Source of the DNA: Eledone cirrhosa
Lineage: Eukaryota
Assembly: GCA_964016885.1 (NCBI GenBank)
Contig: OZ024740.1
Span: 165,168,001-165,232,000 of the forward strand
DNA length: 64,000 bases
Reading direction: 5' to 3'
Shown: positions 2,592 to 48,277 of the stretch, piece after piece
Layout: every line of letters starts with the position of its first letter
Numbering within the stretch: position 1 is the stretch's first letter
Notes under the pieces: generated by a model
Seen by the model: only the letters and a program-made list of their open reading frames with translations
What the model was told of the DNA's origin: nothing
The model's database searches: none
Program-made: the position numbers and the translations under genes

Positions 2592-2920
2592 GTACTATAT
2601 AATGTAGCGTACCTCTCAGACCCCACGCTACTTCAAGTGAGTTAAGAGATCGGATATCCCTCAGTTCTATGCAATACCTCTCGAGTGACATATGTGTTTC
2701 ACTGTGACATCTCAGTCTCAGGTATACAGGTAGCTGAAAAATCTACTGAGATGTGGTCTACTACATTCTAAATATCGAAAATATCACACCACCTGATCCA
2801 CTACTATATATTTGTATGTATGAATGAAGTAATTCCGTCGGAAAGGTACAGGAAAAAAGAGTGTTCTATGTAAGTTACAGAGCTTATTAGTTATGTAATA
2901 AACAACATAAGATAATTATT

Positions 2921-2976
2921 TCATTTACCACTGGTTTCTTGAAAGCAGATATATCTGCTTTCAGTCGTCAGAATGA
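2921..2976 (-). ncRNA. minimal type I hammerhead ribozyme motif
   Basis: TCATT-CTGACGA-CTGAAAGCAGATATATCTGCTTTCAA-GAAAC-CAGTG-GTA-AATGA: stem I TCATT/AATGA, long stem II, GUA cleavage triplet. Confidence 0.8.
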
Positions 2977-3300
2977 ATAAACCATGGTGTTTTTATTAAA
3001 ATGTGGATTTGAAAACAAAATATAAGAAATATGAAAGTGAGGCTGAGGAGACAGTGGGCGAAGAAATGGAATATATATATATATATATATATAAAATAAG
3101 TAAATAAACAAACATACACACACTCAACCACGCGCATATACTTAAAAAGTACATATACATAAGCTGTCACTACTTCATGTATATGCATATGTAGATTTTA
3201 CCACAAATGTGTTATATATTTAAACTGAAACGTACAATAAGATACAATATTTCCTATACATACCGTATCAATAACGATTCCATCTCTCAGACAGACTAAA

Positions 3301-3369
3301 GTTGTAATCTGTTTCGCCCTGAAAATTGTGTTTGTAACAGATAATCCCTAGGCATTTCATCAGCGAGAG
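3301..3369 (-). ncRNA. degenerate hammerhead-like motif
   Basis: CTGATGA-AATGCCTAGGG...CAGGGC-GAAAC; stems I and III pair poorly. Confidence 0.4.
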
Positions 3370-3589
3370 ATTAGATTAAATGAAACAAAACACATCTAAC
3401 AAGAAACTCACGGAAGTAAATAATGTACCTCGTGGGTTGAAAGCTATACGTGGTGTGAGTGGTTTTGCTAGAAATAATAGCCTAATTACACTCATCTTAT
3501 AAGCTCACCAGATATGGAGCCGAAATACAAATAAAATATAGAGTTATTAATTCATATTAATACCCTGCAATTAACAAGATCAAAGTATT

Positions 3590-3777
3590 GGTGGATTGGC
3601 AGTATCGGTAGAGGGCCAGACGCCATGCTTTGACGTATTGAGTTACGGCCCTTGCCATTCTGAGTTCAAATCCCGCCGAGGTTAACTTTGCCTTTCATCC
3701 TTACGGGGTCGATAAAATAAAGTACCAGTAATACACTGGGTAATTTCTGGCCTTGTGCCAAAAGTAGAAACAATTAT
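3590..3777 (+). mobile_element. tRNA-derived SINE, near full length
   Basis: A-box TGGCAGTATCGGTAG, B-box GAGTTCAAATCC, body CTTTGCCTTTCATCCTTACGGGGTCGATAAAATAAAGTACCAGT, end GAAACAATTAT. Confidence 0.92.
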
Positions 3778-4299
3778 ATTATTAATATATGTAGAAATAA
3801 ACACAGTAAATTCTGCGACTAAAATTACGAGGGTAGATTTTACCACAAATGTTTTATATATTTAAACTGAAACATACAGTAAGATACAAGATTTCCTATA
3901 CATACCGTATCAATAACGATTTCATCTCTCGGACAAACTAAAGATTTAATCTGTTTCGCCCTGATGAATGTAATTAGGCTATTATTTCTAGCATAACCAC
4001 TCACACCACGTATAGCTTTCAATCCACGAGGTACATTATTTACTTCCGTGAGTTTCTTGTTAGATGTGTTTTGTTTCAGGTTATCAATATGAGTTAATAA
4101 CTTGATATTTTATTTGTATGTATATGTATGTATATGTATGTATTTTGCCCATGTCGGTTGATACATATACGCTTATGTGACACCTTATGTCTACGTACTT
4201 TTTAAGTATATGCGCGTGGGTGAGTGTGTGTATGCTTGTTTATTTATTTATTTATTTATTTTATATGTATATATATATATATATATATATATATATATG

Positions 4300-4428
4300 T
4301 AGGAACGAGTAAGACCGCGACGGCTCGTCGGGGTCTTACTCGTTCCTATTACCCACTCTACTACCCTAAGTATTGAGTACTTTGGTGCGTTATGGTCCAC
4401 CTGGTTCCTTACCACATTTCCTTCGTTA
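4300..4428 (+). mobile_element. short copy of the Naiad-PLE 3' tail with snap-back 5' end, in (TA)n
   Basis: matches 13190-13297; TAGGAACGAGTAAGACC...GGTCTTACTCGTTCCTA inverted repeat. Confidence 0.8.
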
Positions 4429-4505
4429 TATAGATATCTCTCTATATATATATATATTTATATATATATATGTATATATATATATATATATATATATATA
4501 TATAT

Positions 4506-45581: not shown

Positions 45582-46125
45582 ATAGTTCAAAAGGACAAAC
45601 AAACGCAAGAGTAAATAGTACAAAGTGTTTTTAGCTACACACTTGGTGAGAGTGGATGGGGTGTTTCGACGTTTCGGACATAAGTCCTTCATCAAGAAAG
45701 TAGAAAGGCACTCCGAGAGGGAGTGAGGATGGTAGTAAGGAGGAAAGTTAACAGGAAGAACACGAAAGCAAGGGTGAAAAATAAAAATAAATAAACATAA
45801 TTTTTTAAAAAGTGAAAATGAAGGGGGTTGGGTGTACAGGTGCAGAATGGCAAGGGTGTGGTAGTGAGTATAGGGGTGGCTGGATGGGGAGAGAAAGGGT
45901 AGGGAAAGCAAGAAAATCAGAGTCCTAACGTGTGTGCGTGTGCGTATAAGTGTGTATGTGTGGATGTAAGTATGAGAGCCTGGAATGAAGTGAGTGTATG
46001 TGGATATAGGTTTTGTTTTGAAAAACTATTGTGTGCGTGTAGGGGTGGAGTGTATGTCTATCCATCTATTGTCCCTGTATGGTTGTTGGTGTGTATGTGT
46101 GTGTGGATGGAGTGGGACGGATGGG
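45582..46125 (-). mobile_element. solo PLE-type pLTR with minimal HHR at 45664-45699
   Basis: TTTC-TTGATGA-AGGACTTATGTCC-GAAAC-GTC-GAAA; bounded by short (TA)n runs. Confidence 0.65.
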
Positions 46126-46175
46126 ATATATATATATATATATTTGAAAATGTGTGAGATCCTTGGTATATTTGA

Positions 46176-47277
46176 AAAAAAGGAAAAGAATGACTTCACT
46201 TGTAGTTCTAAATAATTTGATTTAATTTTATAATATTACTAGCAGTAAAGCCCGGCGTTGCTCGGGGTCGCTCAGTAGCTGTGTTAAAGTTACAATGTTA
46301 AGTGTCTTTTTTGGCTTAAAAACTGTAGTGTCTACTGTGCAGACTTGCATGTGGTGTTTTTGATTAATATTCCCTCAACCAACAATATGCCTTATGAAGT
46401 TAAGAAAACATAACGATAACTCGAATGTTATAACAAAAGAGGATGCTGGGGATAAAAACTGCACTGGTTATTTAGTAACAAAGATCGAAAATGTAAACAC
46501 TGCAACGCAGAGAAAAACATTAGCGTAACCAAATTATCAGTTATGTCTGTCTGCACGCCTATATCACCTCTCTGCACGACTGTCTGTCTGCACGACTGTC
46601 TGTCTGCACGCCTGAAATATTTGCTTGTTTTACGTAGTCTTTAAATAGACTTGTTTTCAAGTAAAAATATTGTTTTAAAATGCTTTTAAATGGAAATGAA
46701 GCAAAACGGAAGCTTAGTGTTCGAACTGATGAATTTTGCAGGTCAATATTTTGCTGGCTCGAACGCTGAGAAAGCCAGCGTAATTTTTTACGTAAGACGC
46801 TCAATGTAAACAGAACAAAGGGAAATAACTGATCACTTACGCTCAAAAATCGATACATTATATTCAATTTCGTCACATAGGGTGGGTAAATTTGAAATTT
46901 TTTTTTTCCGATGTCTTCGCTAGGCCTCAATGTACAAGTATAGCAATTTCGGTGCAATTCCGTGAGAGATTCTAGGAGGAGATGTGTGCCAAAAATCGAT
47001 AGACAGACAGACAACCACAGTTTTATATATATAGATAAGTTGGTAAATCTAGTAAGTTCTTTGTTAGCTTCGGTGGAAAGAAATTTAAAGATTCCTCGTT
47101 AAATTTCTTGAAGAAATTTGTCAAACTGAGATCAATCCAAGAAAGTTAACCAGGAATCTTTAAAATTCTTCCCATCGAAGTTAACAAAGATCATACTAGA
47201 TCTGCCAACTCATAATATTATAATATTACATCAAATTATTTAGAACTACAAGTGAAGTCATTTTTTTCATTTTTTTC
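46176..47277. repeat. snap-back palindrome split by a Helitron insertion
   Basis: 46176-46238 plus 47036-47110 is the reverse complement of about 47137-47277. Confidence 0.75.
46239..47035 (-). mobile_element. non-autonomous Helitron
   Basis: 5' TC, 3' CCCGAGCAACGCCGGG hairpin plus CTAG, inserted between A and T, no TSD. Confidence 0.88.
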
Positions 47278-47302
47278 ACGCATATATATATATATATATA
47301 TA

Positions 47303-47527
47303 CAATATATTAATAAATGGAAACTATATTTATAAAACCATAATTATTTTATTATATATATTTCAAGGGCGATCAAATATATATAATAAAATAATTATTG
47401 TTTTATAAATATAGTTTCCATTTATTAATATATTGTATATTTACTCCACTAACTGTTGAGTGCTTTATATCAGTTATAAACATTTTTAAGCTTGTTGAAT
47501 CCCAACAAATTAAATATAACCTCTGCA
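47303..47527 (+). mobile_element. family A short snap-back copy
   Basis: arms 47303-47360 and 47375-47435; 3' end matches 6113-6203. Confidence 0.7.
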
Positions 47528-47555
47528 TATATATATATATATATATATATATATA

Positions 47556-47749
47556 TAAGGGAGGAAATGTGGTAAGGAACCAGGTGGACCATAACGCACC
47601 AAAGTACTCAATACTTAGGGTAGTAGAGTGGGTAATAGGAACGAGTAGGACCCCGACGGCTGAGCTCAAGCCGTTTCGACGGCTAATTCTGTCCAGAATT
47701 AGCCGTCGAAACGGCTTGAGCTCAGCCGTCGAGGTCCTACTCGTTCCTA
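47556..47749 (-). mobile_element. Naiad-tail snap-back copy in (TA)n
   Basis: inverted repeat around 47692. Confidence 0.85.
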
Positions 47750-48277
47750 TATATATATATAGAGAGAGAGAGAGAGAGAGAAAGAGAGAGATGCAGGCAT
47801 GGTCCCATGAATCCTGAATGAGTCGTAGGGGCCCCGTAGTGATGTACGGCCTTTCTAACCCATTGTCTTTTAAACTTAGAGGACCCCAACTCTTCTCCAG
47901 GTCTGAATACAGCAAACGTCTTCCAAGAAGGATAGAGAGTGGGAGAAAGGAAGTTAGAAAGAAATATAGAGGAAGTACTGGACTGGCACTTTTGTTTGTT
48001 GACCTCAAAAGGATGAAAGGCATAGTTGACCTCGCCGGGATTTGAACTCAGAGAGCAAAGAGAAGAAACGAAAAAAACTACAAAGCATTCAACCCGACGT
48101 ACTAATGACTCTACTAATTTGCCGCCAAATGTCGTCAGTAATTTTAAAGAAAATCAATTATGATCGAAACATCACTAACTCAGTAAGCTAGTCACAAAGG
48201 AAATAATATAGGACACTTTACTATATGCATTGAATACATGATTCTGTAAGTCAACTTCTTTCTTTCAAACATTATAT

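Follow-up and report, generated by a model that had tools for sequence, protein, structure and literature searches.

Hammerhead ribozymes dispersed through animal genomes have been tied to Penelope-like elements (PLEs). The portions consulted of Cervera and de la Pena 2014 (PMC4209133) describe many heterogeneous families of minimal hammerheads per metazoan genome, mostly single, dispersed and derived from truncated PLEs, together with opposite-strand pairs 100-700 bp apart and U3-A8 cores. Non-coding hammerhead retrozymes are proposed as non-autonomous PLE derivatives in the available parts of Cervera 2020 (PMC7229834) and Li et al. (bioRxiv 10.64898/2026.07.22.740005), and those of Craig et al. 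2021 (PMC8557442) note non-autonomous Chlamys elements and, in the supplement, record (TA)n insertion for Hydra-1_Obim and the octopus Naiads. Already published, then, are PLE hammerheads in dispersed form, their opposite-strand pairs and U3-A8 cores, the TA targeting of Hydra and Naiad elements, and retrozymes derived from PLEs. The window considered here, a 64,000-nucleotide stretch of the Eledone cirrhosa genome (GenBank assembly GCA_964016885.1, contig OZ024740.1, positions 165,168,001 to 165,232,000), is in bulk a dense new sample of this largely known pattern of PLE hammerhead ends in TA tracts. Its hammerhead motifs are close to the 3' ends of some dozen unrelated repeat families, which were probably put in place by PLE reverse transcriptase (RT) and GIY-YIG endonuclease; most copies are truncated, often to mirror-image stumps, and at least one family, B', is likely non-autonomous. 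Another, family J, carries a predicted hammerhead with a permuted block order that leads to the Naiad PLEs.

The survey covers the 64-kb window, in which the 22 sites listed in an earlier sequence-only reading of this DNA were graded by eye for core order and boxes. A hammerhead box is present at all 22 coordinates and a type I reading fits 21 of them, 16 intact (marked in Table 1) and five with a changed core, so that the claim of about 20 type I hammerheads stands except at 37474, which is not type I. Several of the intact sites have a mismatched first stem II pair or a short stem I. Among the core-changed sites, 5891 lacks U16.1, 45695 has U3.G8, and the three motifs of family E (13843, 30931 and 31018) pair U3-A8 with GCAA where GAAA is usual, a core that is either a conserved variant or decay. 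Hammerheads absent from the earlier list are found at both ends of the element PLE1 (13113 on the plus and 10796 on the minus strand) and, in decayed form, at 15161. That list also lacks the complete copy of the 37474 motif, at 38043-38117. Two type I descriptors jointly recover 14 of the 22 sites and match nowhere else in the window. Each gives 12 matches, against means of 0.45 in 60 local dinucleotide shuffles for the first and 0.25 in 100 for the second, with no shuffle in either set reaching 12. The sites outside these 14 were read by eye and, at 3363, also by an unconstrained fold, which yields a three-way junction there (stems I and III are 8 bp each). Two-sided stem pair changes number five in family A (equalled in 2 of 500 shuffles) and three in family D (13 of 500), each from only four distinct rows, and covariation in family C is seen by eye. 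The excess over shuffled sequence and the covariation between copies that the sequence-only reading had looked to are both found, and the hammerhead-shaped motifs are real; their self-cleavage is only predicted. An Rfam scan gave a single, weak hammerhead match (HH9 at 31886-31960, E=0.22), its other matches being almost all of miRNA type, on microsatellites and uninformative. Compared with the motifs of PMC4209133, as far as the parts consulted describe them, those of the window share family diversity, opposite-strand pairs, U3-A8, an extra base after A9 and a palindromic helix III, and differ in that three have GCAA for GAAA and several have a long loop II or a stable helix III.

Self-comparison and alignment reduce the 22 sites to 19 insertions (three pairs of sites are the arms of one insert each) in 11 families, close to the roughly ten unrelated families first claimed, and add a family, R, that had no entry before. 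The inserts had been described as 150-700 bp long and bounded by (TA)n, and this largely holds: the inserts around 18 of the sites measure 180-720 bp, those around the other four 0.96-2.3 kb, and TA tracts flank both sides at 19 of the 22. The window is AT-rich, with 132 TA runs of at least 8 bp, LINE (long interspersed nuclear element) fragments and 18 matches of one SINE (short interspersed nuclear element). Of the 39 ends that homology defines in multi-copy families, 36 have a TA run of at least 8 bp no more than 16 nt away, 30 of them no more than 3 nt away; none of the 36 SINE-match ends does, and the background is 4.3%. This upholds the expected enrichment; the 16-nt cut-off is the analysts' choice, and paired ends of an insert are dependent observations. 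The 190-bp SINE that served as control has 18 matches, spread across 2405-55194, all of them more than 16 nt clear of any TA tract. The consulted parts of PMC4209133 make no mention of TA targeting, while the window families adjoin TA. The prediction that standard annotation would report most of these inserts as simple repeat fails, since Tandem Repeats Finder marks the flanking tracts and, inside the inserts, only a few short arrays.

Two coding PLE lineages sit in the same TA-type sites, as had been claimed and as their translations and TA adjacency bear out. PLE1 encodes, on the minus strand from 12845 to 11188, an RT followed by a C-terminal GIY-YIG domain, with a CxCX5C linker, CxxC and CxH and without CCHH. 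The translation agrees in these motifs with the Hydra clade as described in the consulted parts of PMC8557442; because the copy is 5'-truncated, its N-terminal half, where the DKT and RWK motifs would lie, is outside the comparison. Hammerheads near the 3' end and (TA)n insertion are both present. PLE1 thus resembles Hydra-clade elements, including Hydra-1_Obim as presented there, in its C-terminal GIY-YIG, CxCX5C, CxxC/CxH, (TA)n target and 3'-proximal hammerhead; a different hammerhead and a diverged RT (both by eye) and a U3-A8 core set it apart from Hydra-1_Obim as a separate family. By eye, the hammerhead layout of families A, B, B', F and I also resembles that of the Hydra hammerheads in File S2 of that source, as far as it was seen. 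PLE2 has a C-terminal GIY-YIG and a CX4CxxC linker, which by motif falls within the CX2-5CxxC pattern of Neptune/Nematis-type PLEs, and its frame has an Octopus vulgaris protein as best match (70% identity). The family D hammerheads at 34774, 40304 and 43252 stand directly behind the GIY-YIG coding sequence of PLE2 and of its relatives at 34052 and 42520. The two PLE1 segments and the PLE2 nuclease escaped a Pfam scan, a homologue search with PLE1 was empty, and the PDB gave no match for P0003.

Many of the small inserts consist of two truncated copies joined head-to-head: one stops at the fixed end of the arm, and the other continues 35-100 nt farther, into a tail. Both fixed ends, that of the arm and that of the tail, are common to stumps and coding elements, and the inversion centres vary. 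Five family R palindromes of 100-190 bp align to the PLE1 3' end (41-48 of 51-52 nt); they begin inside or after helix II without the CUGANGA half and are therefore not ribozymes. Inverted truncated copies with a tail on one arm are a signature of PLE insertion in the parts consulted of PMC8557442 and PMC3846280, and the two internal start sites of PLE reverse transcription in PMC11167929 would explain why only one arm is tailed. The PLE protein would nick both strands of a TA tract, reverse transcription would begin at either of two fixed internal sites, here 35-100 nt apart, and both copies would stop early and then join head-to-head, leaving an inverted insert with one tailed arm. The hammerhead would persist in most stumps because it lies within about 50-400 nt of these start sites. 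Short non-coding RNAs that retain a PLE 3' end could be copied in trans, and the palindromic helix III predicted in most folds may make cutting weak or dimeric. At 31283-31750, a minus-strand tailed B' end meets a plus-strand C end head-to-head, as if the arms came from two RNAs.

Could the foldback inserts be DNA transposons instead, similar to miniature inverted-repeat transposable elements with TA targets, their hammerhead boxes mere passengers or chance? Long TA-bounded inverted repeats fit such elements. However, the arms mirror the entire insert, the tail is confined to one arm, the centres differ, coding PLEs and single-arm copies have identical ends, and the stems covary, so this origin is most improbable.

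Partial tandems define units of 658 bp in B', 319 bp in C and 637 bp in J. The B' unit has no stop-free frame longer than 65 aa. Public data aligned to B' (33280-33996) comprise 2946, 2645 and 62 contigs and 3372 reads from four runs; the 2946 contigs belong to run X1, and all 30 bins of B' are covered in X1, X2 and X9. Three runs have joints that go back by 651-660 nt on B', and the junction between tail and unit is crossed by one diverged contig (33405-33535). Because public reads cover the whole unit and close it onto itself, and because it is non-coding, B' is likely a closed-unit non-autonomous PLE. The run search gave no RNA run for B' and carries no information on expression, and no weight as evidence was given to z-scores for the units folded as circles (-1.4 to -4.3 from 12-30 shuffles, hammerhead hairpins included). 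The left copies of C and J begin 13-15 nt past the predicted cut, as expected from a cleaved template, and that of B' about 229 nt past it, which does not fit; this agreement in two of three was noticed post hoc. Families D and R show no closed non-coding unit.

The sequence-only reading had gone further, proposing a large system of non-autonomous ribozyme elements that borrow PLE proteins. Its link to PLEs, its TA targeting and, in B', its non-autonomous unit are retained; as a statement about all the inserts it is not supported: sites 34770, 40300 and 43248 and family R trace to coding PLEs. When 3' ends are matched to the coding elements of the window, the D sites go with PLE2 and the R stumps with PLE1, and no coding remnant stands beside A, B, C and E-J. 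The proposal, in which most families would be retrozyme-like non-autonomous RNAs multiplying through PLE proteins, draws on the closed B' unit, the partial tandems of C, J and 4507-5490, the absence of coding remnants beside those families, the almost identical starts and ends of both B copies (the two starts agree to within a few nt) and the clustered centres of R and E. Against this, the D sites and R stumps derive from coding lineages in the window, copies of family A differ in their 5' ends, of which there are four, and a direct tandem of two complete hammerheads is absent; as an account of most families it is unlikely, though a serious contender. No insert in the window holds two complete hammerheads in direct tandem, so none is a retrozyme as defined in the consulted part of bioRxiv 2026.07.22.740005. 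As far as the sources seen describe non-LTR (long terminal repeat) retrozymes, the window units are like them in being non-coding hammerhead units of a few hundred bp, whereas B', C and J occur dispersed, as partial tandems set in TA tracts with PLE-type ends, rather than as tandem arrays with a hammerhead per unit. The non-coding partial tandem at 4507-5490 (616-bp unit, repeat of about 350 bp) has a PLE-like layout between TA tracts, and type I, permuted-order and four-block scans found no hammerhead of any block order in it.

Conversely, every insert might be the truncated end of a coding PLE, the apparent tandems being two insertions adjacent in one TA tract. TA remnants at the C and J junctions favour this, and the consulted text of PMC4209133 interpreted dispersed minimal hammerheads in this way, but the B' tail-to-unit junction is crossed by diverged copies from other runs and the unit's upstream portion is itself high-copy, which makes so sweeping a version improbable. 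The preferred reading, of mostly truncated PLE ends with at least B' non-autonomous, has points against it as well. Among 24 listed pieces (5673 further pieces exist), a single one reaches across the B' tail junction with 31 letters to each side and none spans the B' unit, and depth on B' drops some 50-fold across the hammerhead's 5' half, where many copies may differ. Most hammerhead regions form no three-way junction in unconstrained folding. In each of families R and E the centres of inversion fall a few nt apart, which is also what a master element formed beforehand would produce. Families A, B and E-I may be stumps of coding PLEs outside the window or non-autonomous families, and the window fits either. 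A set of octopus-type PLE end families with a likely non-autonomous unit is nonetheless useful for repeat annotation; the octopus hammerhead and retrozyme literature, in the parts seen, holds only a hammerhead count for the giant squid genome and the Hydra-1_Obim hammerhead.

Family J departs from this pattern. Permuted hammerheads of type SGC and type CSG are described in the available parts of Eckert et al. 2023 (PMC10085705), where a break between CUGAnGA and stem II is assumed impossible and where no example comes from the genome of a known organism, one bacterial candidate excepted. Site 37474 holds only a CUGAUGA half, and readings of it as a type I, II or III hammerhead were rejected on core reading and a block-order scan. 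The full motif copy in J runs from the 5' strand of stem II through the cleavage block and the GAAA block to the CUGAUGA block, the stems measuring 8 (I), 6 (II, three of them G-U) and 5 bp (III), 19 bp in total. In a scan for the order site-GAAA-CUGAnGA (S-G-C), with the threshold set at the observed J value, its score is reached in 2 of 200 shuffled windows, or in 10 of 200 for any non-circular order; matches at 32547 and 32361, which fall in a long inverted repeat where type I hammerheads are already present, were dismissed as artefacts. With a four-block descriptor, J, with its total of 19 bp, is the sole match in the window with all stems of at least 4 bp, a result found in 2 of 1000 shuffled windows (47 of 1000 for any match at all). 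The S-G-C blocks with stems I and III agree with type SGC; the stem II strand directly after CUGAnGA is only 1 bp, so block C is not unbroken. J is like the permuted hammerheads in the consulted parts of PMC10085705 in its site-GAAA-CUGAnGA order, short linker between stems I and II and pseudoknotted stems. Unlike the types given there, J and the Naiad family described below have the stem II strand upstream of the cleavage block and not after CUGAnGA. The J copy is predicted to fit a non-circularly permuted hammerhead split after CUGAUGA.

Is this arrangement peculiar to J? The parts of PMC8557442 consulted find no canonical hammerhead in Naiads and flag cores and half cores ('HHR_half_core') at the 3' end. 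In an unsystematic reading by eye of the Naiad consensi there, the split order appears in nine of the displayed passages and an intact CSG order in six; Naiad_Obim and Naiad_Ovul share with J a spacing of 23 nt from GAAA to CUGAUGA, and the Naiad_Esco end shows no clear fit to a permuted order. A pattern scan of metagenome contigs found at least 120 loci and one of viral contigs a single match, without stems, giving 121 matches listed. Of these, 86 belong to one family and the other 35 mostly lack stems. Within the 86, unselected for stems, stem I is 91% paired (19-39% when slid), with a first pair of C-G in 37, U-A in 37 and another in 12, a split that may be one event. An upstream stem II of at least 5 bp is present in 60 of these 86, and a downstream stem of at least 3 bp in none. 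Among the matches listed, the RT C-terminus ends 281-331 nt upstream of the motif at six loci of this family, and the L047 peptide upstream of the motif has full-length homologues (72-74%) in P0054 and P0072. Both homologues have an N-terminal GIY-YIG, CxC, DKA and a C-terminal RT, a layout that matches Naiad and identifies the family as such. No TA run lies within 120 nt downstream at any of 80 of its loci among the matches listed, so that the motif and TA targeting do not go together. Alignments of this family to L073 mostly begin about 45 nt upstream of the cleavage block (near position 790 on the L073 sense strand), which suggests a preferred truncation point or the start of a pseudo-LTR just before the permuted motif.

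We somewhat favour the view that Naiads bear non-circularly permuted 3' hammerheads, in an intact CSG form and a split form (broken between A9 and G10.1, with CUGAUGA last), and that in J the split form is carried by a non-autonomous element that targets TA, with cleavage predicted in each. J, with a hammerhead permuted as at Naiad 3' ends, would then be a Naiad derivative. It has the (TA)n target, partial tandem and 3' half-core motif of Naiad-type elements, features that the consulted parts of PMC8557442 report for Naiads (the target in cephalopods), and unlike them has no open reading frame and no sequence similarity to Naiad loci. The tie to Naiads is therefore one of motif layout, position and target. 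Several observations count against it: J has no Naiad coding sequence and the window no Naiad RT, MAFFT gave no alignment between J and the Naiad loci, stem II of J includes its three G-U pairs, the motif is present in a single full copy, and the four-block descriptor was designed after J and the Naiad consensi were known. No report of a permuted hammerhead linked to Penelope or Naiad was found in the literature outside subscription journals, Repbase reports and bioRxiv supplements. If the view is right, the reported exception of a large PLE clade that spreads without a recognisable ribozyme disappears, and non-circular hammerhead permutations move from metatranscriptome rarities to abundant animal retroelements. 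These would be the first permuted hammerheads in animal genomes, and the CUGAnGA block would not need to connect to stem II, a natural four-block topology.

Table 1. Inserts, stumps and coding PLEs of the window. Boxes belong to hammerheads (HHR); "intact" marks the 16 intact type I sites; a point marks inserts without a single strand.
Feature	Position	Strand	Details
Family B copy, 185 bp	2886..3070	-	type I HHR box 2971, intact; 92% to 5515-5690
Family G rearranged inverted insert, SINE inside	3094..4261	.	HHR box 3363(-), intact
Family R stump, inverted arm and tailed arm	4302..4426	+	without complete HHR
Family B copy	5510..5691	+	HHR box 5607, intact
Family A foldback insert	5797..6203	.	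HHR boxes 5891(-) and 6018(+), the latter intact; right arm tailed
Family R stump	9916..10010	.	
PLE1, broken 5'-truncated Hydra-clade PLE, head-to-head	10688..13296	.	U3-A8-type HHRs 10796(-), 13113(+)
Family E foldback insert	13666..14023	.	variant HHR-like motif 13843(+), U3-A8, GCAA
Family I single copy	14075..14269	-	HHR box 14232, intact, long loop II; by eye, without support from unconstrained fold
Family A copy	14314..14520	+	HHR box 14421, intact
Family D decayed 3' end	15095..15291	+	box 15161
Family F foldback insert	29921..30268	.	minimal HHR box 30100(-), intact, Hydra-type layout
Family R palindromic stump	30488..30675	.	cut inside helix II
Family E foldback insert	30750..31165	.	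variant motifs 30931(-), 31018(+)
Family B' tailed 3' end, SINE-split	31283..31632	-	head-to-head with family C
Family C partial tandem, 319-bp unit	31633..32069	+	U3-A8 type I HHR box 31903, intact
Family A foldback insert	32175..32645	.	HHR boxes 32361(-), 32547(+), both intact
Family B' copy with tail	32718..33254	-	HHR box 33170, intact
Family B' partial tandem, 658-bp non-coding unit	33279..33996	+	HHR box 33642, intact; predicted cut after 33709
PLE2-lineage truncated copy	34052..35010	+	inverted tail, GIY-YIG remnant; HHR box 34774, intact
Family R palindromic stump	35084..35273	.	
Family C copy	37143..37329	+	U3-A8 HHR box 37159, intact
Family J partial tandem, 637-bp unit, 51-bp repeat	37444..38133	+	site 37474 is the cut-off left motif copy
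Predicted permuted hammerhead in J	38043..38117	+	predicted cut after 38067
PLE2, broken coding PLE, inverted 5' piece	38168..40490	+	RT, CX4CxxC linker, C-terminal GIY-YIG; HHR box 40304, intact
PLE2 truncated copy	42520..43510	+	GIY-YIG remnant, tail; HHR box 43252, intact
Family H single copy	45585..46125	-	minimal HHR box 45695 (U3.G8)
Family A stump	47304..47527	.	cut at GAAA box
Family R palindromic stump	47558..47747	.	

Other repeats share the window. Two copies, 78% alike, of a 190-bp TA-bounded element lie at 10119-10312 and 18485-18686, with no hammerhead match. At 40600-41787 a 584-bp sequence is repeated in direct tandem (97%) with (CATA)n between and flanking the copies, likely a LINE or SINE 3' end with its microsatellite tail. 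The repeat at 46191-47260, with 48-bp inverted ends and a nested insert, recurs at 49582-50581 and is DNA-transposon-like. RT-bearing LINE fragments (Pfam RVT_1 and Exo_endo_phos) occupy 35273-37172, 57112-60344 and 62165-64000, the last two 77% alike, and at 60543-61920 a LINE 3' half with a CCHC and a restriction-like nuclease motif, which we take to be akin to R4/Dong elements, ends beside (AAT)20.

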